This document shows, piece by piece, positions 1 to 12,882 of a DNA stretch of 64,000 nt. The stretch's first letter is position 1. Each line of letters begins with the position of its first letter. This DNA is from a virus, in the IMG/VR virus record IMGVR_UViG_3300034095_000254. One strand, given 5' to 3'. The position numbers and the translations under genes were made by a program. The notes beneath the pieces are model-generated. The model searched no databases, was not told the DNA's origin, and saw only the letters and a list, made by a program, of their open reading frames with translations.

Positions 1-631
1 TAAATTCCCAATGCCAAAGATCTTTCTCGTATACTTCAATATACATCTCATATATTTTACTTAGGCGATATGGTTTGTCCTGTTCACCTGAAGCCATAGC
101 ATAATTCAATTTACATTGAACATCCATTTTCTTGGCTAACTCTACATGTTTAATTGCATGCTTCTCATTCTCTTCAGAGATAACTGCAATAAAACCTGGA
201 CGATAACCAATTTCTTTTAGGAATAAATCACTGACATTCCAAAAGTCTTTTTCAGTATAGACTCGGTTCTCGTTAATCTTACGACCAAATCCATATTGAA
301 AACTTGTGGTGACTCCGACTCTTGGATGTTTGAACAAAGGTGTCCACATCTCTGGTTTCTTATAGAATGCCCAGAGATTAGTAGTTAACCCTATTGTTGT
401 TTGGAGATTGTGTTCCTCAATATACTCCAGAATTGCAAAATAGTATTCTGGTTTTACCATCAATGGATCGCCACCATTGACGATAATTGTGTTTGTATTT
501 GGGAATCTTTTTAGAAAGTCAAAAACATGCTGAAGGTTAAGTGTACTTGCTTTGTCTTCTACGAGTTTAGTCGATGAACAAAACGAACACTTAAAGTTAC
601 ACAGTTCCGTGGGTTTGATTATAAGTTCCAT
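1..631 (-). CDS. Radical SAM enzyme no. 2 (3' end runs off the window; not in the ORF track)
   Basis: Manual translation from ATG 631: MELIIKPTELCNFKCSFCSS...IIVNGGDPLM...LTTNLW. Has CxxxCxxC and a GGDP motif; open to base 2. Confidence 0.9.
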   Translation of the reverse strand, partial: MELIIKPTELCNFKCSFCSSTKLVEDKASTLNLQHVFDFLKRFPNTNTIIVNGGDPLMVKPEYYFAILEYIEEHNLQTTIGLTTNLWAFYKKPEMWTPLFKHPRVGVTTSFQYGFGRKINENRVYTEKDFWNVSDLFLKEIGYRPGFIAVISEENEKHAIKHVELAKKMDVQCKLNYAMASGEQDKPYRLSKIYEMYIEVYEKDLWHWEF

Positions 632-1583
632 TTTTCACTTTATACTTATTAAGCCATGCTGTATTATTTTGGTTCTTTAGAATCGTGTTCCAGAAAATGG
701 GATTAACGGAATCAAAGTTAGAGTAGTTCGGGAATAATAATTGAAATTGTATAGCAATCTCAGGATTTAGTAAACGAGTTCTAATAAACTCAGTCTTAGT
801 CATGGTTAAAACAGGATCTAGAATATCTTGATATTCTTCACTATTATTAACTATTGTAAAAAAGTGTTTATGATAATCAAATCCAAATTTATCTTTAACT
901 ATTGGTACAACAGTATTTGGTAGAAACTCATCAACTTTAAACTGATTAAGATATTGCTCTAGATAAGCATCACTAGTCAAATGTTCTATGGTAAACTCTG
1001 AATCAGACATAATAGCTGGAAGAGATTGTTCAGCATACTTTACCCAAAAGCCTGGAGAGCCATCGTACATTTCGTTTACACGATCCGTACAAAAATCTAA
1101 TGCTTCTTCGTCACCTCTAACTGAGTTTGCAAAAGCAATTTCAACTCTGGTATATGTTAGCGTAGATGAAAATGTAGATGCAGTATCAGTAGTCTTTAAA
1201 GTTTTTGGTAATTCAACAAACTCAACATCTCTATTTGTGAATGTTCCAATTCTGTAATTTTCTTTTATTCTATCAAATGAATATAACTCTTTAACTGCAG
1301 TAGTTTCTAAAACACCATTAAAGAAGTATGAGTAAACATACATAAAATTATTGGTATCACAATAAATTACAGTTTTTGTATTCGAGTGATCTTGATGAAT
1401 CTCATTAAATAGTTCGTCAAGTTTAGTATCATCGATCGTTTCATATGAATGTAAAATATCATATGTAAGATGAACCATGGAATCGCTGGATAGTTTTGGG
1501 TGTGAACCTATCCAAACTTGTTTGCTCTTTTCAAGAATACTATTTGTAGTTGATAGGTAACAGTTGTCGAATAGGTATATCAT
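597..1583 (-). CDS. Hypothetical protein in rSAM cluster (paralogue of 1580-2461)
   Basis: 328-aa ORF overlapping both neighbours; motifs MIYLFDNCY and VIYCD. Confidence 0.75.
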   Translation of the reverse strand: MIYLFDNCYLSTTNSILEKSKQVWIGSHPKLSSDSMVHLTYDILHSYETIDDTKLDELFNEIHQDHSNTKTVIYCDTNNFMYVYSYFFNGVLETTAVKELYSFDRIKENYRIGTFTNRDVEFVELPKTLKTTDTASTFSSTLTYTRVEIAFANSVRGDEEALDFCTDRVNEMYDGSPGFWVKYAEQSLPAIMSDSEFTIEHLTSDAYLEQYLNQFKVDEFLPNTVVPIVKDKFGFDYHKHFFTIVNNSEEYQDILDPVLTMTKTEFIRTRLLNPEIAIQFQLLFPNYSNFDSVNPIFWNTILKNQNNTAWLNKYKVKNGTYNQTHGTV

Positions 1584-2461
1584 GCTATTAAACCCAAATT
1601 TGTAATTTTTGATTGTGGTAATTTAAGTAGCCATCTAAGCAACCAAGTGTCTACTTTATCACTGGATAGTAGTAATAAAAATTTTGGATCATTTATTAAT
1701 TCTTCAGTAACACCATTTTCAAAGAACTGCACAATTAAAGAATCTGTAAATATTGATCTATCTTTTCTCATTTCCATGTATAAATCTTTCATGGAAATAA
1801 CTGTTCTAAATTCTTGGTTAAATGGATCTGTTGCCCAACCATCTTCTTTTCTAGATAGGTAACATTGTCTTGCATCACCAAAAAATGAATATACATAACG
1901 ATTAATAAGTGATGTTAAAATACCATCATAGTTATTCGGAACACCACATTTTCTGTTGGCTATCTTCCATTCAATTCCTGCATTTTCCCAACTCCAATAC
2001 TCAGACATTGGAAATTTACCAACAGAAGCTGATGAGGTTAAAGCAATAAACTTATCGCCAAGATCGCTAATAATTTGTTTGTTAGTAGAATCAATTAGTT
2101 TTGATTTTATCTTTAAACGAACACCAAACAGTTTTGCAAATTCAAGAAACAAAGATTCGTCAAAATTAAAAATATGAGATTTAATTTTTGCAGTAAAAAA
2201 CTTGACTAGTGTTTCATCGTCACAGTAGATTATAAACTTCTCTTTATTACTGCAGACTGGTTCGACTAGATTACTTTTAATGAAATCTTCATAGGTAGCG
2301 AATCTCCCGAAGCACTGCTTAACTGATACATTATTATAGTAAAAACTATTTTCGACTTGAGTACCTAGAATAGCATGTTTCTGCCCAACCACGATATAAT
2401 CAATAGAAGGATCAAACATTGCGTCTGGGTAGACATAACAGGAATTATAGAGATGTAACAT
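1580..2461 (-). CDS. Hypothetical protein in rSAM cluster
   Basis: 293-aa ORF; motifs MLHLYNSCY and IIYCD. Confidence 0.75.
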   Translation of the reverse strand: MLHLYNSCYVYPDAMFDPSIDYIVVGQKHAILGTQVENSFYYNNVSVKQCFGRFATYEDFIKSNLVEPVCSNKEKFIIYCDDETLVKFFTAKIKSHIFNFDESLFLEFAKLFGVRLKIKSKLIDSTNKQIISDLGDKFIALTSSASVGKFPMSEYWSWENAGIEWKIANRKCGVPNNYDGILTSLINRYVYSFFGDARQCYLSRKEDGWATDPFNQEFRTVISMKDLYMEMRKDRSIFTDSLIVQFFENGVTEELINDPKFLLLLSSDKVDTWLLRWLLKLPQSKITNLGLIA

Positions 2462-3236
2462 TTGTCTCTTCGTAGATAGATTGAAATTGTTCAGTAGTCA
2501 ATGGTGTTTCTAACATAATTCTTAACAGCGGAAAAATAAAACAATTCGGGGATGTTATAAAGTTAATTAGAGTTTTACCTGAGTAAATCGGTCTATCAAA
2601 ATAGTGATCGAAATACTTTATGTTATCAAAAGATGGAACAGAACTGTAATAGTGGCAGTTGAATGTTATATTATCAAATAAATTTACAAATGTTTTTCCG
2701 ATGTCTTGTTTTTCAGTAACAACATTATTTGTAACAAAGTCACCGAGTTCTTCTTTGTATGCAGTTAGGTTTTTAATTGCATATAATAAAACACCATCTA
2801 ATATTTCAGACAACTGTTTAATTAAATCTGTGTTCTGTTCTACGAATTGTTTCACTTCATCGTTAGATAAAATACATTGTTCTAAAACTGCTTTATCATC
2901 TTCTGATTTATCAACTAAGGATAAATCATAATCTCGAAAATAAAACAAACATTTAATTACAGTTGCTTCTAATTGATTAATATGACAAGATGAGTTATGT
3001 TTAATAAACTCAGAAAGCAGTTCAGATTTTTCTTCAAAAGAAACCATAGACATATTAATATTTAAAGACTCATACTTTAAATTACTCAAATATGTAATAA
3101 AGTTTTTACCTTTAATTTTTGAATTATTATAGTCAATCTCAGGAGATTTAATATCTCCTGTTATAATACTTCTTAAAGTTTCAGAATCAAATGGTATAGT
3201 GTACATTAAATACTTCCGTGGCAAGACCCATGACAA
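2445..3236 (-). CDS. Hypothetical protein in rSAM cluster (true start probably ATG 3206, MYTIPF)
   Basis: Long ORF coupled to neighbours; no recognisable motif. Confidence 0.7.
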   Translation of the reverse strand: MSWVLPRKYLMYTIPFDSETLRSIITGDIKSPEIDYNNSKIKGKNFITYLSNLKYESLNINMSMVSFEEKSELLSEFIKHNSSCHINQLEATVIKCLFYFRDYDLSLVDKSEDDKAVLEQCILSNDEVKQFVEQNTDLIKQLSEILDGVLLYAIKNLTAYKEELGDFVTNNVVTEKQDIGKTFVNLFDNITFNCHYYSSVPSFDNIKYFDHYFDRPIYSGKTLINFITSPNCFIFPLLRIMLETPLTTEQFQSIYEETNVTSL

Positions 3237-3721
3237 TTACTATGGCAGTAAAATTCTTCAATTGTAACAGTATCTGTTCTATTATTATTAATTGCAGTTG
3301 ATAGAGCACTAACAAAATCATCTAAATCAGAAGCATCAATAATATTATCAGAAGCTGGTCCACCAGTCATATCTTTTTTATAACTATCTTGTAAATTAGT
3401 AATGTTTGTTTCGTTGTAATCTGTTCTTGCTCTAACATTACCTTGAATCTGATAATATTTTAATAATTTAACACTTCTAATTCTAGATAATAATACAGCA
3501 TATGCTCTAAAGTTTGTTGTAATGGTAGAAGCAGTAATATTGGTATCTGATATATCCGCTTCTAATGTTTGAGAATAACCACTAGCATTACCACCAGTAA
3601 TATCTGTTTGAAATGGTTGACTGTGAGTTCCCCACACAATACCAGTATTATATGTGCTCGACAACGCTGCCATTGAAGCAACGATGTTTGCTTTTGTTAT
3701 ACTATCGCCAGCTGTTGTCAT
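3206..3721 (-). CDS. Candidate rSAM substrate: T/S/N-rich protein with C-terminal YCHSNCHGSCHGS
   Basis: All three Cys lie in the last 13 residues; gene immediately follows the rSAM/SPASM gene. Confidence 0.7.
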   Translation of the reverse strand: MTTAGDSITKANIVASMAALSSTYNTGIVWGTHSQPFQTDITGGNASGYSQTLEADISDTNITASTITTNFRAYAVLLSRIRSVKLLKYYQIQGNVRARTDYNETNITNLQDSYKKDMTGGPASDNIIDASDLDDFVSALSTAINNNRTDTVTIEEFYCHSNCHGSCHGSI

Positions 3722-4781
3722 TCTTTAACCTTTGCATTAGTGTTTTCGGTGCTGCACAGATATCTCCTTGCCACTTTAATTGGTGACAATCGCTATTACA
3801 GATATCAAATACATCGCATGTATAGCAACGAGGGTCTCTTTCTATCTCGCATGTAATGTTATTTATTCTTCCTCTGGCGGAGAGTAGAGTTCTAATGGGC
3901 TGAGATATATCTCCAAAGCCATTACCAACTGCAGCATTTGGACATCCAGCCACAGTTCCATCGGCATTGATTGTGAAAATTTTCTGCTCACAATCTCTGC
4001 ATCTAACTCCACCATGTATCCCTTTAGTTATAGAGGAATACACACCCTCTAAGAGGACATCTTTATATTTAGGTTTTATTGTCTGATAGGTTTCATGCAT
4101 TCTAACGAACCAGTCATCTTGATCTTTATTTCTAGGAAAAATATGAGTGTTTTCCAGAGCCGAACCATCATGGGTTAGTCGTTCAAACTGTACCCAATTA
4201 ACACCCAGAGTATTGAGCCAGAGAACTAACTCTGTGGTATCCATTTCTAAGAGTTGTTTGTTTAGACTAATATTCAGTGTGATATTAAATCCAGCATCTA
4301 CTACAGTTTGTAGATTCTTTCGCCAGAGTTTTTCTTGTTTATCATTCTCAAAACGAATACCCTTATCCCATGAAGTGCAGAATCCATTCTTTAGAACAGT
4401 TCTGAAAAACTCCATGTGGTCTTCTGTTAGATTGAAGCAGAGATTAGTAGAACACGACCAGTTAAGATTTGGGAATAACTTAGATACTTTATCCCAAACA
4501 TAGTACATGTCATCTAGAGGAGCAAGGAATGGTTCTCCTCCATGAAATGTAATGTTCCCACCATTAAAAGTTGGGCATTCCTCGTGGAGTCGTTCAAACC
4601 ACTCTACAGTATTCTGGGGATTAAAGTATATCTTCTTGCCGTTGACACCATTAGTAAAACAGTGTTGGCAATTTAATTGGCAAGTCTCAGTGGTCTTAAG
4701 ATAGACCACTAAGTCTTTTGGGATTAGTATATCTGAAAGAGATACATTTGTCTTATGAAAGACGATTGGTTGAGATGTCAT
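3702..4781 (-). CDS. Radical SAM/SPASM-domain enzyme
   Basis: CQLNCQHC, FHGGEP, and Cys-rich C-terminus (INADGTVAGCP...CYTCDVFDICNSDC...C). Confidence 0.93.
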   Translation of the reverse strand: MTSQPIVFHKTNVSLSDILIPKDLVVYLKTTETCQLNCQHCFTNGVNGKKIYFNPQNTVEWFERLHEECPTFNGGNITFHGGEPFLAPLDDMYYVWDKVSKLFPNLNWSCSTNLCFNLTEDHMEFFRTVLKNGFCTSWDKGIRFENDKQEKLWRKNLQTVVDAGFNITLNISLNKQLLEMDTTELVLWLNTLGVNWVQFERLTHDGSALENTHIFPRNKDQDDWFVRMHETYQTIKPKYKDVLLEGVYSSITKGIHGGVRCRDCEQKIFTINADGTVAGCPNAAVGNGFGDISQPIRTLLSARGRINNITCEIERDPRCYTCDVFDICNSDCHQLKWQGDICAAPKTLMQRLKNDNSWR

Positions 4782-4787
4782 AAAGCA

Positions 4788-6002
4788 TTATAAAATCACA
4801 CATTCAACAAGTTTTACATTAGGATCTAAATTAGTTTCAAGAGCAATGGCAAAACTATTTGGATGATCTCCAGCAATGGCACGACCATCTTGATTTGCAA
4901 CAAGAGGTTGTCCTTTGTTGATCGGACCAGCAACTTTAACTGGAACACGACCACGAAGTGCCAATGCCTGTCCTTCTGCTTCATCATTCATAATAAATGC
5001 AGGTTTGGCAGAAACAACACCAAGAACTCTTTGAGCATATTTAAAAGAAGCAGTACCTTCTGCAGAAGAGTCTAACGATACTGTAATAACAGTTCCTGTT
5101 TCATATTCTTGATCAGTTGTATATTTTTCTGCCAAGTCAGCGTAGCGAGCAGAAGTGCTCGTACCGTAAATAACAGCGAATCTATTCGCAGATTGTCCAA
5201 TGTCACCAGATCCGTTAGCACCTTGTTTAACAATGTAATCTACAGTTGGAGTTGAAGACATGTTAATAGTTGGGTTTCCAGAAACTCCATCTCCATTACT
5301 AATAGACATATTAAATCCAGCTGCAATACTTCTTGTTAGTGCTGTACCTGCAGAATCTTTAACAAAGAAGCCATGAGTAGTTACTGCAGCGAGTGCTGTT
5401 AGATTATTAGAGAATGGTTGAATGTCAGAACCAATAACTAAACCTAAGTTTGTTCTTGCTTGTGTTGTCGATGTAGCTGCAGTACCACCAGAGGCAATTG
5501 CCAATGCAGTCGTTAGAGTTACAGATCCGCCAGTAATAGTAACATTATTTGCAGCTTGCGTAGCCATAGTTCCTAAACCGAGCGCAGTTCTAGCTGCAGA
5601 CTCAGTTGTAGCACCAGTACCACCATTATTAATTGCCACAACACCACTAACATTGGTTGCATTACCAGTAACAGTTCCAGTTAGGTTACCAGTAACATTA
5701 CCAGTAACAGCACCAACTAAATTGGCAGTAATAATATTTGCCGAAAAATTACCAGAAGATCTAATGACAACAGAATTTCCACTAGTATCATTGACACTAG
5801 TATTCAAACCATCCAGTAAGTCTGCATCTAAACCAGAACCTGTCCCATCAACTGTTTTAATTTTTGTAAGAACATCTGAAGCAGTATATGTAGCTGTTGC
5901 TAGTTTTGTTCCAACCTCAGTGTTCAAGTTATCAAAGTTAGCGTCTGCCTCTGCAATCGTTAGCGGACTGCCTTTTACACTGCGAAGTACGATTGTTGCC
6001 AT
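4788..6002 (-). CDS. Tail-fibre-like protein with C-terminal intramolecular-chaperone-like domain
   Basis: G/T/A-rich repeats (GGTGATT..AARTALGLG); C-terminal YADLAEKY...GVVS..PAFIMN...LRGRVPVKV. Confidence 0.75.
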   Translation of the reverse strand: MATIVLRSVKGSPLTIAEADANFDNLNTEVGTKLATATYTASDVLTKIKTVDGTGSGLDADLLDGLNTSVNDTSGNSVVIRSSGNFSANIITANLVGAVTGNVTGNLTGTVTGNATNVSGVVAINNGGTGATTESAARTALGLGTMATQAANNVTITGGSVTLTTALAIASGGTAATSTTQARTNLGLVIGSDIQPFSNNLTALAAVTTHGFFVKDSAGTALTRSIAAGFNMSISNGDGVSGNPTINMSSTPTVDYIVKQGANGSGDIGQSANRFAVIYGTSTSARYADLAEKYTTDQEYETGTVITVSLDSSAEGTASFKYAQRVLGVVSAKPAFIMNDEAEGQALALRGRVPVKVAGPINKGQPLVANQDGRAIAGDHPNSFAIALETNLDPNVKLVECVIL

Positions 6003-6232
6003 TATTGTTTACCCTTAATAAGCATTGCGAGCATCTCTTTTATCTCTGTTACATCTGACTCAATCTTTTCAATTTTATCAGCGTTTTGTTTAATTTGTTG
6101 ATTCAATTCTTTAGCTGCATTTCTTTTTTGCAAATAGTTTTCACGATCTGTTCTATTTGTATTTATCACTGCACCACTGGATAGATCTCTTATAAGACCA
6201 TCCTTGTTTTGTATTTTAACGAAACCTTCCAT
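6002..6232 (-). CDS. Small coiled-coil protein of the tail region
   Basis: 76 aa, GLIRDLSSGAVIN then heptads; coupled to both neighbours. Confidence 0.65.
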   Translation of the reverse strand: MEGFVKIQNKDGLIRDLSSGAVINTNRTDRENYLQKRNAAKELNQQIKQNADKIEKIESDVTEIKEMLAMLIKGKQ

Positions 6233-9200
6233 TATACGCAGGCAAGCACACGAAGATCTTTAATTCTTGGCACTTGAGAACTATTAGAAGATTTCATAAC
6301 AATCTTAATTTGCACAGCATCAAACGCAATCAAATCATCCAGTGAATAAGAAGCATCATAGAATTGATCTTCTTGATTAGATGAAGTTATAATAGGAGAA
6401 TCTATTGTCATTTGTGAATATGAAGCATTTCCGAATGGTACATTGGAACCAACAATATTAGTTTTGTACCAAACTTCAATAGAAGCATCAGCTGGAAGAT
6501 TAGCTGCAAATTTAACTCTTAGATAATTAGAGTGCGCTGCTAGATTAACTCTCTTAGTCACATATTTACTATATGTAGAACTTTCTGAAGGAGCATTTTC
6601 AGATGCAAATCTTTCTCTTTGAGTTATTGTTACATTACCAGTAACTGCTGTTGGTGCAGAGTCCAATGTGATAGAAGTACCATCTGCAGCAACCGCTGTA
6701 ATTAACTTAGTGCTTGTTCCAGAACTTGCGCCAGCGATAGTAAGATACTTACCAACAGTGGCAGTTTTAAATGCATCTTGCGCAGGAGCAATGTATGCGG
6801 TATATGTCAAGCCAGTAGGTGTACCAGAAGTAGTAACAATAGCAACATCAGCAGTAGTTTTTAAAGTAAACCCAGTCACAGAAGAACCGCTACCAGTAAT
6901 GGCAGAAACTTGATATTGTGTACCAGTTGCATAACCAGTAATAGTACCAGTACCACCTAGTGTACCAGTGATGGTAATTCTACTACCAACCACTAATGTA
7001 GTTGCAGTACAAGTAAATTGACCAGCAGTGCCAGAGATAGCAACACCAGATAAAGTCGCTGGCGAAGCAACTGCACTAGCTGCAGTTACAATAGTACTAC
7101 CACTAATGCTTATTGTAGGACTGTTACTTATTAATACATTGTAATCTAAAGAAGCCACATTGAGATTAGTCTCTGATGGATTATTAACTTTATTTCCAAT
7201 AGCAATCAAACTTGTTCTATGAGTATCAATAATTGGTGATAATGCGTCATTTGAACTGCTCATAACAATGTTAAATTTAACTGATTTATCACCACTTAAT
7301 CCAAATACAGCATCAGCTTCATTTTGTTCAGAAGCAATCATCTTCGGTATACCGAAATAGTTAGTCTCATTTGCTAACACACCACTATAAACAGTATCTT
7401 GAACATAAGCTACTTGTGAAGTTGAATCAACGGATTTACCAGTAACACCTTGAATTCCAAAACTAATTGGAGTTTCAGAGAAAGATTGTAGTTGAACTAA
7501 TGGTTGAACTGCATCATACTGAATGTGTCTTGTTGCCTTAACTACAGAACCACCACCATATCCAGATGCCGTTGCATTTGAAGCAAGTGTAATACAATAG
7601 CTGTCCAAATCAACATCACTAATTGTATGAGTTGTATTAAATCCTGCAAAAGCAATACCATTGACATCGGCAGAAACACCACTAATAGTTACATAAGAAC
7701 CAGATGGGATACCATGATTGTCTTGCCAGACACGAACTTTAGCAACTCCTGCTCGAGTTTCGAATGGATTAACACCTAATGTAACTTTTGATAAAGCATC
7801 ATTTGTGTACTCAATATTAGAATTAACACCAGTTTCGAACTGACAACGATAAATTGTAAACTTCAAATCTTGAGTTTGATCTGCTGTCCAAGTAGAAGCA
7901 TTTTGAGATTTAAACAATGATCCAAGATATGGTTGTTCAGAAATAGTACGAGCAGTTCCAGGCATTTGATCACCCACTTGAGAAATCCAAACTTTATAGT
8001 TGTTTGAATCTGACGCTAACACGATAGCGTACTCAGTATTTTCCTGAACATAAACTGGGCTAGGGAATGTGAATGTAGTTGGTGTATTATAAGAAGGTAT
8101 ATCTACACCATCTAATAATACTGTTGTCTCAGAAAGATTTATAGATTCTGGTTTTAATGTAACACGGGAGAACGGTAAAACTCGTTTTCCTGGATATCCA
8201 TTAACTACCTCACGAATTTCTAATGTAGCTGGGATTGCAGTATCTTTAGATGCAAAGAATACATCAACTTTAGATAAGAAGCAACCACCCTTTTGTTCGA
8301 TTAAGAATGTTTGTGCAAGAGGATCCCACCAACCAGTATCAGCAACAACTCGGTCAGAAGTTTGAGTAATAACTTGGTTATCCTCAAGTGGTTCTTGCGC
8401 TAGTTCTGCATTACGAACAGCATGCACTGTTCTTTGTTTAGTTTCAAGAATACCCTCTGCACGATAATTTGCTCTTGCACGAGAAGTAAACGCTCCAGTT
8501 GCAGTGGTTACATCTACCAGTTTTAATTCACGACTACCACAACGGAATCTTAATTGTTCATTATTTGGAATATTGAATAGTAAATTTAACTCGCCATTGA
8601 AGTTAGAGATTAAAGTGCTACCAAGTGCCTTAGTTGTAATTGTTCCAACTGTTCCAGATGCAGCAGTAGGATAACCTAATGGATTTGATGCAGTAATTGT
8701 TTCGCTAGCAGAGAATGTACCCTGAATATTAACTACGAATAATGCATATGTGCCAGCGTCTGGGTTGTATTCTTTACCAACAACAACAGCAGTTGCAGCA
8801 GAAGTTCCACCAGTAATAATATCACCACGATTTAAACAAACCTGTGAGTCGCCATCAACTCTTCGTGCAGCTGCAGTAGCATTGGAACCAACATTAGTAT
8901 CAGTATCAAATTTATTATGTGTTATTAATTTTGCTGCAGCAGTTGCTCCAGTAGGAGTATATGCAATCTTAGAAGCTGGTGTGCAATAAGCAGAAATATC
9001 AATACCATCAAAGAATGGATAGAAACGAGTGCTTGGTTTTAATTTTTGAATTTGAACAAGAATGTTTCTTGAACGAATATAAGGAATAGCTGCAGTTGAT
9101 AGAACACGATCGCCAACAACTTGTCTGTCAATTTTCTCAACTAGAGTAGTTTTGATACCTGTTCTGTTTTGTCCAACTTGAGTAGCAGTTTGTTCTACTG

Positions 9201-12200
9201 TAACTTGACGAGCATTATCATGACGCCCAACACCACCAAAACGAGCATTTATTTCAGCAACAGAAATTCTAACTTGTCCGTGTCCAGATGCCCAGTTAGT
9301 ACCTGCTGTATATACTACACGACCAGTGCTAACTGGTGCACCAGTCCACTGTGTTTGCCATGCATTCCATACAGTTCCAAGAACACCAGCTTTCTCAGCA
9401 ATGTTTTTGATTGTGTTAAAGTTTCCTTCAACATCAATCACTAAATCTGGACGACGATCTGTTTCAAACCAATCGTCAGAAGATGGATTAATTTTAACAT
9501 CACCAAGGAATGTAAATACAGCGAATGGATTAATGTTTTCTAAACGAGAAGCATACGCTTGTGTAATAATTGGTAGATGATTAACAACAGGTAATGTAAT
9601 AACATCACCATATAATTTGTAATTTGCATCACCACGATCACTATCAGAAGAGACAGCTTCAATTAAATTTACATTTTGCATTGTGTAGAATGGACGCAGT
9701 TCTGCTCGCTCCATGTCAATTGAATTTAAATAATCAGGCGATGTTGTGTCACCTGTATTATGTCCAGAAAAATTATCTACAATAAAGCCATTTTTAAATC
9801 TGTCTAAACCATTACTGTCTATAACATTTAAAGATTCTGTCTGTTGTTCTAGCAATGATAGTGATGTGTAGTATTCTAGGTTATCAATTCGTTTTTCTAG
9901 TTTACCGATATCACGCATAGTGTATCGTTTATTATCAATTCTATTTACTTGCACATTATTGTTTAATGTACCAAAAGTGTATGGCTCTAATGTTAGATTA
10001 TAGAGAACAAGACCAAGAGTTGGGTCTAATGGCTCTCCTGGATTTAAAGATGACACACCATTAATAGCAAAGAAGGTTCCACCAAAGTCTACAGCAATCT
10101 TAGTTTTTCTTGCTAGGTAGTATTCAAAATCAGTTGTAATATCAATACCACGCTTTGGTAGTAATGTCACAGAAGGATTTGTGCCAGTATATCCTGTCCC
10201 CTCGTCGTCAATCTTTGGTCTAAAGTCAATAACATCTCGTAAAGCAGTACCTTGGAAATAAGGTAGAGCACCATACTGAATAGATGCTGGGTATGAATCT
10301 TTAGTAAAATAATCACCAGTACCGTGAGTGAAATAATCAAATGTCACTTCAACAGGTGCTTCTGGTGGGGCATATGAATTCTTAAGAATTAATCTTGATT
10401 GATCATAGTGAGTAGATCGTTGTCCATCATCCCAGATAAAACGATCTGAAATATCGATAGAGTAAGTAGCACCTGGAGATGCAAATGTACCAGATTTCAT
10501 TTTAACAGAAATCAAACGATATCCATCACCCTTACCGAGTTTTAATTCAGTAACTTGTGCAGTCGCTGCATTGGTAAATGTTTTAGTAGCACTCGCAACT
10601 AATGTTTTTGTTTTTTGAGTTAGTGAAGCACCACTCTTATTAACTGCTGCAATAACAAAAACTGTTTTTGTGTTATATGCGGTATCAACAGGAATTGCTG
10701 CATTTGCAGTGCCAGAAGTAAATGTACCAGTAATTGGAATAATTGCGCCACCTGTGGTAGCATCGGTATCAATAACAGTATAATTGTCGTTATCTGCAGC
10801 AGAAGCAAATGTTCCTGAAGCGGTAGAAATAGAAATAGATCCAGCAGACACGCTACTAGTAAATGTTTCATATACAGTGTAAACTGTATCGCTTATGTCT
10901 TTAATTGCGTAATATGGGAATGGGAATAGTAAAGAAGTGTGCTCTGGCTCATATAATTGAGTTTCAACTCTATCGATAGTAACACCAGTTACTGAAATTG
11001 AAGCATCTACTGTTAAAGAAATCTGGGAGGCAATTGCAGTAACTCTTCGTAGAGCAGTTCCTAAGAAAACATAGTCACCAACTCTAAGATCTGTTTGGAA
11101 AGAAGTTCCAGCACCAGTAATTGTAGTCGATGCCGATGCTGTAGCAGAACCGATTAAACGAACTAATGTTCCAGGACCACCACCAACTGTAAGGATAGTT
11201 CTAGCAGTACTTTCAATATCAGCAGTAAAGTTTAAGTTAGCGTCTGCACTAGATCCAACATGATAAACTGATTTAACATCCCTATTAAAGTCATAGCCAG
11301 ATGCCATCTGGACATCAAACAAACCTAATTTATAGACAGCAGTTTGTGCACCAATAGTTCCATTATGATATTCCATAAAACGAACACGAGCAGTTCCAAC
11401 TGCAGTTCCACTAGTTGGAATTACTCCAACTGAAGATGTCACTCTATTGTACAGAGTGACTTGTTTTAATGTATTGATTCCTGGAACACCATTAACATTA
11501 GTGACTAAAAGATAGTTACCAACTGTGGTAGGAATAACTGCATTATCAACTGCGACAAAATCTCTGGCTTTTTGAACTGTTACATATTCAGTGGCAGGTT
11601 TTTCAATTTCATAACCTTGCACATACGCTTTTCCTGGTTCTAAACCAATTGCCAATTGTGCTTCATTACCCTGTTGTGTTCCAAGATTTTCTGAAGTACC
11701 TGGAGTATAAACACCACGATTGTAGTATGGAGTTTCGTTATATTCCCATTGAATACCTGAAGTACCAACACCTGCAACAGATCCGTCATAAACAAGACCA
11801 GCAGTATGAGTTGGTGGAGTGCTACTAGAAGAAGTACCATTATTCTTTGCGACATATATGTAACCACCATTGGTTACCACATCGCCATTTAAGTACACAC
11901 GACCTGTCGTCCAAGCACCACGATTATTATTTCTATACTCACGAACATCGATTTCAAAATTCTTAACTGTGTAGTTACCTGACTCATCATATGTTCTATG
12001 AGCAAATTCTTTTTCAAGATATGAATATTCTGATTTATCAACTACCTTTTGAGTTTGTCCAGCACTGACACGGAGTAATTCAATGAAATCTGTATCGCTT
12101 GTACTATCTGATGCAAGTTTAGTTAATACGGCATCGATGTAGTAACGATGAGCACCTGGAGCAGCATAGTTAAATGAGTTTTGTGCATTATCAAAAAGAG

Positions 12201-12882
12201 TTCCGTCTTCTTCTGCAGTAACGATATCTTCAGAAGTAACTAAACCAATTCTATAAGATGGAGTATTTGTAAATTTGTCAAGGATAATTGTTTGCTCTGG
12301 GACTAGAACAAAATGTCCTTTAATGTAGTAAACACCTTGTTGAATAGTAGCTAAAGAACCAGTTCCAGTAGCAGAAGATGTTGCAGCTTGAACTGTAAAT
12401 TGTCCTGCTGTAATTTCAGTACCAGCAGAGTTTGTGCCAGCAAGGTTTGTTAAAATGTCTGAATTTGAGAATGTTTTAGTGGTGTTATTATCACCAGAAT
12501 TTAAATAACGAACGAATAATGCTGCAGAATCAGCACCACCAGAAACAGTATAATAAAGTACCTGAGCCTGAACACCTGCTGCATTTTCAATGATTAAACC
12601 ATTAAATTTAGCCACAACAGTATCGGCAAGAACAGCACTATATGTTGCTTCTAATTTAACATACGCAATTTTAGTGTCAATACCGATAGCACCTGGAATA
12701 ACCATGGAGCCTTCTTTAAATACATGATCACCAAAACGAGAAATCTGATTTTGCAGAATGGTCTGCATTTGAGTTAACTCTCGTGCTTGGACAGCATATC
12801 CTGGGCGATAAAGAATCTTCAAGAATCTTTTTGATTCGTTGAAATCGTCGTAATACGGTTCGGTGTTAAAATCAATAGCCAT
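6232..12882 (-). CDS. Large virion structural protein, DUF4815/VrlC-like
   Basis: N-terminus PYYDDF...RPGYAVQARELTQMQ; APGAHRY; NKRYTMRDIGKLEKRI; DPLAQTF. Confidence 0.85.
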   Translation of the reverse strand: MAIDFNTEPYYDDFNESKRFLKILYRPGYAVQARELTQMQTILQNQISRFGDHVFKEGSMVIPGAIGIDTKIAYVKLEATYSAVLADTVVAKFNGLIIENAAGVQAQVLYYTVSGGADSAALFVRYLNSGDNNTTKTFSNSDILTNLAGTNSAGTEITAGQFTVQAATSSATGTGSLATIQQGVYYIKGHFVLVPEQTIILDKFTNTPSYRIGLVTSEDIVTAEEDGTLFDNAQNSFNYAAPGAHRYYIDAVLTKLASDSTSDTDFIELLRVSAGQTQKVVDKSEYSYLEKEFAHRTYDESGNYTVKNFEIDVREYRNNNRGAWTTGRVYLNGDVVTNGGYIYVAKNNGTSSSSTPPTHTAGLVYDGSVAGVGTSGIQWEYNETPYYNRGVYTPGTSENLGTQQGNEAQLAIGLEPGKAYVQGYEIEKPATEYVTVQKARDFVAVDNAVIPTTVGNYLLVTNVNGVPGINTLKQVTLYNRVTSSVGVIPTSGTAVGTARVRFMEYHNGTIGAQTAVYKLGLFDVQMASGYDFNRDVKSVYHVGSSADANLNFTADIESTARTILTVGGGPGTLVRLIGSATASASTTITGAGTSFQTDLRVGDYVFLGTALRRVTAIASQISLTVDASISVTGVTIDRVETQLYEPEHTSLLFPFPYYAIKDISDTVYTVYETFTSSVSAGSISISTASGTFASAADNDNYTVIDTDATTGGAIIPITGTFTSGTANAAIPVDTAYNTKTVFVIAAVNKSGASLTQKTKTLVASATKTFTNAATAQVTELKLGKGDGYRLISVKMKSGTFASPGATYSIDISDRFIWDDGQRSTHYDQSRLILKNSYAPPEAPVEVTFDYFTHGTGDYFTKDSYPASIQYGALPYFQGTALRDVIDFRPKIDDEGTGYTGTNPSVTLLPKRGIDITTDFEYYLARKTKIAVDFGGTFFAINGVSSLNPGEPLDPTLGLVLYNLTLEPYTFGTLNNNVQVNRIDNKRYTMRDIGKLEKRIDNLEYYTSLSLLEQQTESLNVIDSNGLDRFKNGFIVDNFSGHNTGDTTSPDYLNSIDMERAELRPFYTMQNVNLIEAVSSDSDRGDANYKLYGDVITLPVVNHLPIITQAYASRLENINPFAVFTFLGDVKINPSSDDWFETDRRPDLVIDVEGNFNTIKNIAEKAGVLGTVWNAWQTQWTGAPVSTGRVVYTAGTNWASGHGQVRISVAEINARFGGVGRHDNARQVTVEQTATQVGQNRTGIKTTLVEKIDRQVVGDRVLSTAAIPYIRSRNILVQIQKLKPSTRFYPFFDGIDISAYCTPASKIAYTPTGATAAAKLITHNKFDTDTNVGSNATAAARRVDGDSQVCLNRGDIITGGTSAATAVVVGKEYNPDAGTYALFVVNIQGTFSASETITASNPLGYPTAASGTVGTITTKALGSTLISNFNGELNLLFNIPNNEQLRFRCGSRELKLVDVTTATGAFTSRARANYRAEGILETKQRTVHAVRNAELAQEPLEDNQVITQTSDRVVADTGWWDPLAQTFLIEQKGGCFLSKVDVFFASKDTAIPATLEIREVVNGYPGKRVLPFSRVTLKPESINLSETTVLLDGVDIPSYNTPTTFTFPSPVYVQENTEYAIVLASDSNNYKVWISQVGDQMPGTARTISEQPYLGSLFKSQNASTWTADQTQDLKFTIYRCQFETGVNSNIEYTNDALSKVTLGVNPFETRAGVAKVRVWQDNHGIPSGSYVTISGVSADVNGIAFAGFNTTHTISDVDLDSYCITLASNATASGYGGGSVVKATRHIQYDAVQPLVQLQSFSETPISFGIQGVTGKSVDSTSQVAYVQDTVYSGVLANETNYFGIPKMIASEQNEADAVFGLSGDKSVKFNIVMSSSNDALSPIIDTHRTSLIAIGNKVNNPSETNLNVASLDYNVLISNSPTISISGSTIVTAASAVASPATLSGVAISGTAGQFTCTATTLVVGSRITITGTLGGTGTITGYATGTQYQVSAITGSGSSVTGFTLKTTADVAIVTTSGTPTGLTYTAYIAPAQDAFKTATVGKYLTIAGASSGTSTKLITAVAADGTSITLDSAPTAVTGNVTITQRERFASENAPSESSTYSKYVTKRVNLAAHSNYLRVKFAANLPADASIEVWYKTNIVGSNVPFGNASYSQMTIDSPIITSSNQEDQFYDASYSLDDLIAFDAVQIKIVMKSSNSSQVPRIKDLRVLACV

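Follow-up and report, generated by a model that had tools for sequence, protein, structure and literature searches.

The 64,000-nucleotide stretch of DNA from a marine T4-like phage recorded as IMGVR_UViG_3300034095_000254 in IMG/VR (the whole of which is referred to here as the window) opens with a string of genes in which a tail-fibre gene is followed by a gene for a radical S-adenosylmethionine (rSAM) enzyme, rSAM1, by a gene for a 171-amino-acid (aa) protein with Cys-His repeats at its C-terminus (the tailed protein) and, further on, by a gene for a second rSAM enzyme, rSAM2. These genes are proposed, with a probability of about 0.62, to form a late-operon protein-maturation cassette in which the rSAM enzymes modify the tail of a particle protein belonging to the fibre/baseplate module, which would probably represent an undescribed variant of rSAM protein maturation, tied to a phage particle protein. 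The observations that carry this proposal are the association of the genes, the invariance of the tail and the presence in purified virions of one distant counterpart of the tailed protein, unaccompanied by the enzymes.

The conserved tail and its pairing with radical-SAM genes

The tailed protein contains exactly three cysteines (residues 159, 163 and 167), each with a histidine next to it, giving CHSN-CHGS-CHGS-I at the C-terminus; an earlier note on this DNA, drawn up from the letters alone, had described a 171-aa protein whose sole cysteines lie in a C-terminal CH motif, and the translation reads as it claimed. The DNA motif of the tail occurs once in the 64 kb and in none of 100 shuffles. 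A profile search covering 1.84 billion cluster representatives returned 838 family members, and among the best 149 of these 838 representatives, 145 keep (CHxx)3, with Ser or Asn as the fourth residue of each repeat. In a family alignment of 36 diverse members the Cys, His and Ser/Asn positions are invariant or nearly so (C159, H160, C163, H164, S166, C167 and H168 being invariant), and the bodies of the tailed proteins diverge to 17-30 % identity. The tail hardly varies across 120 close marine homologues with 67-99 % identity, which have no further Cys. The tail ends in R-x-R-R in most members and in Ile or Leu in the marine clade, as in the window. Read in another register, the window tail is composed of three H-x-S/N units (HSN, HGS and HGS). 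Variant tails were noted in P0177, P0217 and P0240; two variants of the form CHSNH(A/S)NTCH(T/S)S have lost the middle Cys and retain two Cys and all three H-x-S/N units, and the variant tail CHNSCHANGGGG has two units.

An AF2 model built with the family alignment predicts an alpha/beta body with a pLDDT (predicted local distance difference test) of 79 and a disordered tail with a pLDDT of 40-56. With this model, a Foldseek search of the PDB gave no match at E <= 0.001, a wide VIA-align search reached a best Z of 4.5 without a meaningful fold match, BFVD returned family members alone, and matches in the ESM Atlas stayed under a template-modelling (TM) score of 0.5. No Pfam domain, S74 included, is found in the 171-aa protein, and its prediction as a homotrimer scored 0.02, which argues neither for nor against a trimer.

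The pairing of the tail with rSAM genes was followed in isolated phages and in IMG/VR. Fifteen isolate records, which fall into four lineages (the RSL2 group, pPa_SNUABM_DT01, Atu_ph07 and Phosso), have homologues of rSAM1 (39-49 % identity to the jumbo-phage enzymes), and in all 15 the gene directly downstream ends in CH-x-S-CH-x-S-CH-x-x, then R-x-R-R; the tailed proteins include RSL2 gp068, DT01 gene 65 and Atu_ph07 gp170. The rest of the cassette is syntenic in these isolates, comprising the 253-aa cassette protein, rSAM2, further rSAM paralogues and cupin/2-oxoglutarate (2OG) oxygenases. IMG/VR was scanned with a degenerate 14-base DNA pattern that specifies Ser as TCN, so that tails with AGY Ser codons fall outside the sample; it matched 117 loci, 63 of which belong to the family. 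In 61 of these the protein is 125-300 aa long and has the motif at a distance of 13-17 residues from its stop; in the other two the motif is internal. A homologue of rSAM1 or rSAM2 occurs within the locus in 54 of the 61 loci with a C-terminal tail. Upstream DNA of at least 1.2 kb is available for 48 of them, and 36 of these have an rSAM1 homologue as the immediate upstream neighbour; the remaining 12 show an intervening second rSAM or glycine-rich protein, or have rSAM genes 1-2 kb off or elsewhere on the contig. Among the remaining 56 of the 117 motif loci, rSAM matches were obtained solely at L044 and L050, which are the family members with an internal tail. The pairing of the tailed protein with rSAM genes is thus not chance, and the co-occurrence of motif protein and rSAM genes in other genomes, on which the earlier note had staked its proposal, is strong in isolates and in IMG/VR alike.

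Oxygenase-type genes accompany part of the family. A small cupin (JmjC_2/Cupin_2-like, homologous to RSL2 gp066) directly precedes rSAM1 in 27 of 29 loci with R-x-R-R tails and is absent from all 10 marine loci with Ile/Leu tails, where the fibre gene abuts rSAM1 as it does in the window. The cupin may act on the Arg residues of the tail end; the marine Ile/Leu loci form one clade, so this contrast counts as about one event. In L044 a 2OG-FeII_Oxy_3 gene lies ahead of the rSAM1 of that locus.

Both enzymes carry the CxxxCxxC motif of the superfamily, rSAM1 at residues 34-41 (CQLNCQHC) and rSAM2 at residue 11 (CNFKCSFC). A complete seven-Cys SPASM pattern (C-x9-15-G-x4-C ... C-x2-C-x5-C-x3-C ... 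C) spans residues 261-342 of rSAM1, which scores 23.3 bits against PF04055 (under the 29.5 cut-off), 26.1 bits against Fer4_12 (over the cut-off) and 23.2 bits against the SPASM model TIGR04085 (slightly under the cut-off of 27), and matches phrog_1802 at E 2.6e-56; its homologue in L050 passes PF13186, and a PDB sequence search with rSAM1 gave nothing informative. The rSAM2 fragment passes the Pfam Radical_SAM model PF04055 (40.6 bits, over the cut-off) and is 49-58 % identical to RSL2 gp075, Atu gp165 and DT01 gene 60. Its full-length marine orthologue, which scores 24.2 bits against TIGR04085 (again slightly under 27), has a predicted SPASM domain. The Cys motifs and domain matches thus agree with the rSAM-SPASM enzyme and the second rSAM enzyme recognized in the earlier note.

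Among named families, rSAM1 is best matched in NCBIfam by DarE (33.4 bits against a cut-off of 650) and the full-length marine rSAM2 orthologue by DynA (52.3 bits against 450), and these matches align over nearly the whole length of the enzymes. The remaining comparisons gave 34.4 bits for HxsC (cut-off 267.9), 18.8 bits for HxsB (370), 21 bits for anSME (349) and 17-20 bits for the RumMC and PapB models, the scores against YhhB (18.7 bits versus 445) and XyeB (18.4 bits versus 450) being negligible. Judged by these profiles, rSAM1 and rSAM2 appear to be of the peptide- or protein-crosslinking kind, but members of none of those named families. The cluster motif of rSAM1 begins at residue 34, which leaves no room for an N-terminal PqqD-like recognition element (RRE) of the type used by maturases of peptides that are ribosomally synthesized and modified post-translationally (RiPPs). 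In close relatives a KedN5-like cobalamin-dependent rSAM C-methyltransferase (B12-rSAM) follows directly after rSAM2, beyond the edge of the window, and is itself followed by a 233-aa protein. In these relatives the order rSAM2, B12-rSAM and 233-aa protein continues with a 302-aa Peptidase_S74 protein (L244:16700-17608 in a marine relative), a second fibre-type gene. A leader peptidase or exporter domain is lacking from both the six window genes and the extended cassette of the relatives.

Probable particle association of the tailed protein

The counterpart of the tailed protein in phage Atu_ph07, gp170, was detected in purified virions by electrospray ionization tandem mass spectrometry with 8 unique peptides and 35 % coverage (PMC6102473 Table S5), and the mass computed for the Atu_ph07 tailed protein, 31.89 kDa, is identical to the table entry for gp170 (PMC6102473). 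The rSAM enzymes gp165, gp168 and gp171, the homologue of the 253-aa protein (gp169) and the cupin gp172 are not on the virion list of the same phage (PMC6102473). Alignment of gp170 with the window family by hhalign gives a probability of 98.5 % and is secure over the last 73 residues. In the gel fractionation gp170 was most abundant in band 1, the top slice (PMC6102473 Table S5), a region in which proteins of 87-139 kDa peak (bands 1-2), other Atu_ph07 proteins of ~30 kDa peaking mostly in bands 7-8 (PMC6102473). Such migration after heating in sodium dodecyl sulphate (SDS) fits, but does not prove, a covalent or very stable high-mass form.

Fusions to other domains are also informative. The family member at L044:2486-3433 (-) consists of the family body, four CH repeats and, ~10 residues on, a Peptidase_S74 chaperone (PF13884, E 1.5e-11; SDERLK motif). 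Trimeric fibres and spikes carry this Peptidase_S74 module, which is freed by self-cleavage; in L044 such cleavage would place the CH repeats close to the C-terminus of the mature protein. In P0155 an N-terminal Gly_rich_2 domain is fused to the family body, and in L007 and L086 a glycine-rich 308-aa protein has a gene of its own, located after rSAM1 and ahead of a short (140-aa) tailed protein; L241:8001-9362 belongs to the same set. Together, the proteomics of gp170 and the S74 and Gly_rich_2 fusions suggest that the tailed protein is a particle protein of the fibre module. The virion role given to it in the earlier note is strengthened by both lines of evidence, in the case of the proteomics through a distant counterpart.

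Two further architectures were observed. The family member at L050:1642-2865 (-) has six CH repeats, a Pro/Thr linker and a domain of ~150 residues running from GGGGGGC to HHN, which resembles a Hint/intein-like self-splicing module but gave no confirming match in Pfam and PDB searches. P0257 (276 aa) joins a LacI-type Peripla_BP_3 fragment to a tailed C-terminal half, which may reflect chimeric gene calling or an assembly error.

Gene layout, unassigned proteins and wider distribution

Positions 1-12882 of the window form a single gene string, all on the minus strand (Table 1), and T4-type baseplate genes (gp6, gp7-like and gp8-like) lie upstream of the fibre/cassette string. By gp6 the closest isolates are pelagimyophages and Methylophilales phages (41-43 % identity). 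The fibre and rSAM1 genes are separated by 6 nt, the rSAM1 and tailed genes overlap by 20 nt, and the stop codon of the tailed gene shares one base with the next ATG (TAATG). This last overlap places the start of the third cassette gene most likely at the ATG at 3206 (253 aa) rather than at the TTG at 3236 (263 aa). The order of genes after a tail-fibre-like gene, with abutting or overlapping junctions, had been described in the earlier note and matches the coordinates and junctions read here. The conserved domain of the fibre comprises its C-terminal ~135 residues (about 4788-5195), on which the tblastn matches concentrate (residues 270-404), and it is found ahead of the cassette in about 40 related loci; its counterpart with this domain in Atu_ph07 is gp176, a listed virion protein.

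Table 1. Features at the first-position end of the window, listed in the direction of transcription
Feature	Coordinates	Strand	Remark
Gene order on the 5' side of the string			2216-aa DUF4815 structural protein, then 76-aa virion protein, then 404-aa fibre
404-aa tail-fibre protein	6002-4788	-	PHROG tail-fibre families
rSAM1, radical SAM/SPASM enzyme, 359 aa	4781-3702	-	constant neighbour of the tailed protein
Tailed protein, 171 aa	3721-3206	-	folded alpha/beta body (residues 1-158) and flexible tail
Tail CHSN-CHGS-CHGS-I (residues 159-171), candidate modification site	3209..3247	-	
253-aa conserved cassette protein, phrog_20767	3206-2445	-	confident model without fold match
293-aa cassette protein	2461-1580	-	syntenic in marine relatives
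328-aa cassette protein	1583-597	-	syntenic in marine relatives
rSAM2, N-terminal 210 aa of second radical SAM/SPASM enzyme	631-2	-	open at window edge

The G+C content of positions 1-4000 is 0.32, versus 0.36-0.41 in the adjoining structural genes, and this AT-rich composition would be compatible with a module exchanged among phages. A scan of positions 1-7000 for promoters and terminators gave signal at or near chance; the T4 late-promoter consensus TATAAATA has no occurrence in the 64 kb, against 5.5 expected from shuffles.

The three proteins encoded between the tailed protein and rSAM2 resisted assignment. The 253-aa protein, whose homologue in Atu_ph07 is gp169, is modelled at a pLDDT of 83.5, and the fold search with this model gave no match (best Z 3.4); its first ~135 residues resemble partial rSAM barrels (ChlB, SuiB, TokK and Cfr) no better than expected by chance (Z 2.5-3.3). 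The 293-aa and 328-aa proteins matched no Pfam, NCBIfam or PHROG family, the former having a weak match to DT01 gene 63, and Atlas feature searches with the 263-aa form of the third gene product and with the 293-aa protein returned nothing usable. The N-termini of the 293-aa and 328-aa proteins are alike (M-x-x-L-(F/Y)-(D/N)-x-C-Y), and both proteins have an IYCD motif; paralogy of the two was considered and found no support at the sensitivity of BLASTP (E 0.68).

Outside viral records, a raw motif scan of genome contigs revealed no family member among open reading frames (ORFs) of at least 90 aa at the loci listed, which number at least 120. When 185,579 species genomes were scanned with guidance from the profile, ten loci emerged; seven lie in Bdellovibrio-like metagenome-assembled genomes (MAGs), where the contigs reach 110 kb. 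Four MAG contigs were inspected: three (L248, L253 and L255) encode an rSAM enzyme, a protein ending in CH-x-S-CH-x-S-CH-G-A-RGRR and further rSAMs, and the fourth (L247) has rSAMs and the profile hit but lacks a tailed ORF of at least 100 aa. No phage structural domains were detected in the genes flanking the L255 locus. In the literature nothing was found that describes the cassette or links the tailed protein to the enzymes; papers on jumbo phages name such genes (rSAM, cupin and 2OG) and give no function for them, and up to 12 rSAM genes have been reported in a marine T4-like genome (PMC5332604).

A maturation model and its alternatives

In the proposed model, the rSAM1 gene, placed immediately upstream, would be translationally coupled to the tailed gene, and rSAM1 together with the DynA-like rSAM2 would probably act on the tail in the infected cell, before assembly. 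The B12-rSAM C-methyltransferase that relatives encode past the window edge would add a further modification. Radical crosslinking is the most likely reaction, in which three-residue rings would be closed by a bond between the His ring and the beta-carbon of the Ser/Asn that follows two positions later; thioethers formed from the tail Cys would be an alternative crosslink, and there may be methylation or hydroxylation as well. A host-contact protein would in this way gain an end that is rigid, resists proteases and possibly binds metal or is locked covalently, and the enzymes would remain in the cell, outside the particle. For such crosslinks there is precedent, since rSAM enzymes join His C2 to the beta-carbon two residues on in HTK, HAA and HNR motifs (PMC11499958), and HxsB/HxsC mature an HxS-repeat protein, with +8 Da on SHRSS and with His and Ser both essential (PMC13128918). 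The H-x-S/N units of the tail, taken with this His-x-x and HxS chemistry, favour modification of the tail before assembly, and the tail is considered the fairly probable substrate of the enzymes.

Known systems resemble the cassette in part. DarE and DynA make aromatic-to-C-beta crosslinks, one of them from His; the products, darobactin and dynobactin, are however secreted antibiotics of 7-10 residues, and the cassette enzymes lie far under the equivalog cut-offs of both families. anSME and QhpD are SPASM enzymes without an RRE that act on Cys or Ser of a folded or folding protein, in which the modification is kept for function, although their targets differ from the tail (C/S-x-P-x-R motifs and Cys-to-Asp/Glu thioethers). 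Sactipeptide and ranthipeptide systems combine an N-terminal RRE with a short Cys-rich precursor, whereas the cassette has neither and its candidate substrate is a folded protein of 171 aa. Among fibres, His-metal sites and repeats in T4 gp37 and gp12 stabilize the tips, and to our knowledge no fibre needs dedicated rSAM enzymes; the S74 module of fibres and spikes is shared by the family member L044, in which it follows the CH repeats, but not by the window protein. The triceptide maturases HtkB, HaaB and YhhB (PMC11499958) are, like the enzymes discussed here, SPASM enzymes, often with repeated omega-x-x motifs in their substrates, and the three H-x-S/N units of the tail read as Omega1-X2-X3 motifs, with S/N at X3 conserved family-wide. 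Triceptides nevertheless derive from short leader-core peptides of bacteria, the invariant Cys of the tail have no counterpart in them, and the known 3-CyFE maturase family is not matched by the cassette enzymes. The HXS antiphage system (Li et al., Nat Commun 2026, PMC13128918) shares with the cassette two rSAMs and a folded protein with repeated His-x-Ser units. It is, however, a bacterial defence whose periplasmic effector has a peptidoglycan-binding domain and a Cys-free, tandem HxS repeat, whereas the cassette belongs to a phage late operon and a virion protein in which H-x-S/N is interleaved with Cys; no HxsD-like partner was identified in the cassette, and neither the tailed protein nor its neighbours have a Pfam domain.

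The earlier note had proposed a RiPP-like system, and of this proposal, which is partly supported, the pairing of rSAM genes with the tailed protein stands, whereas the short precursor, protease, exporter and RRE of such systems are absent; the lack of these classical features points to protein maturation rather than to the synthesis of a peptide natural product. As the note suggested, the tail may carry thioethers, His crosslinks or a metal site, may lie at the tip of a virion protein and may serve adsorption or stability. A classical RiPP, in which the 158-residue body would be a long leader and the tail would be released as a small modified peptide (a toxin, a signal or a counter-defence agent), is accordingly regarded as quite improbable, even though a conserved C-terminal core beside SPASM maturases, with a B12-rSAM methyltransferase and oxygenases in related cassettes, resembles proteusin-like clusters. 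Apart from the lack of a protease, a transporter and an RRE domain in the cassette, the Atu_ph07 counterpart is a virion protein, some members carry the motif internally with a fibre chaperone domain after it, and one has the body fused to a glycine-rich fibre-type domain; moreover, the leader is usually conserved in RiPPs, and here the bodies diverge around an invariant core. The idea that the tailed protein is a helper, which carries an Fe-S cluster or metal or scaffolds the enzymes and is not their substrate, draws on the C-x3-C-x3-C spacing, which could ligate a cluster, and on the co-translation of the tailed gene with rSAM1. It is highly improbable, given that a counterpart is packaged in virions and the enzymes are not, and that the fusions are to fibre-type, not redox, domains.

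Somewhat more weight is due to a pure metal site, in which Zn, Fe or Cu would be held by the Cys and His of one or three chains without covalent change and the rSAMs would have a different target, such as the fibre, some other protein of the cassette or a small molecule. Cys and His are classic ligands and are the invariant residues, the S74 fusion implies a trimer, in which nine Cys and nine His would come close to one another, and any of the three unassigned cassette proteins could be the true rSAM substrate. Nevertheless, conservation of the fourth-position Ser/Asn equals that of the ligands, variants lose a Cys and retain H-x-S/N, and the overlap of rSAM1 with the tailed gene in the window, along with its position directly upstream in 36 of 48 loci from very distant phages, is hard to understand if the two are unrelated, so that this explanation is considered unlikely.

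Several points weigh against the maturation model itself. The scores of the enzymes lie so far below the family cut-offs that the chemistry of characterized maturases cannot be transferred to them, and the three conserved cassette proteins are left unexplained by the model. The virion evidence comes from one distant counterpart, with homology that is secure in its C-terminal 73 residues only, and the band-1 peak of gp170 could reflect aggregation or an SDS-stable oligomer instead of a covalent link. The Cys/His repeats could also merely bind metal without any enzymatic change. It is the tail as substrate, the chemistry and the role that we infer. A broader formulation is held more tentatively, at somewhat less than even chances: that in large phages and Bdellovibrio-like predators an rSAM/oxygenase set crosslinks the (Cys-His-x-Ser)x3 tail of a fibre-module protein, perhaps creating a metal site, as the first radical-enzyme modification of a virus-particle protein, serving contact with the prey cell.

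In the literature searched, no dedicated maturation pathway for a virus structural protein has been described. Maturation by rSAM enzymes is familiar from peptide antibiotics, from cofactors and from a few enzymes. One antiphage effector has been among the rSAM-matured proteins since 2026 (PMC13128918). If the maturation model is true, the cassette would represent a new layer in phage assembly and host recognition, would tie phage fitness to the iron, sulphur and cobalamin supply of the host, and could help to explain the abundance of Fe-S enzymes in marine and jumbo phages. Protein engineering might then also profit from the tail as a short, invariant and enzyme-addressable tag. The occurrence of the cassette in Bdellovibrio-like predators hints at a common solution for gripping Gram-negative prey.

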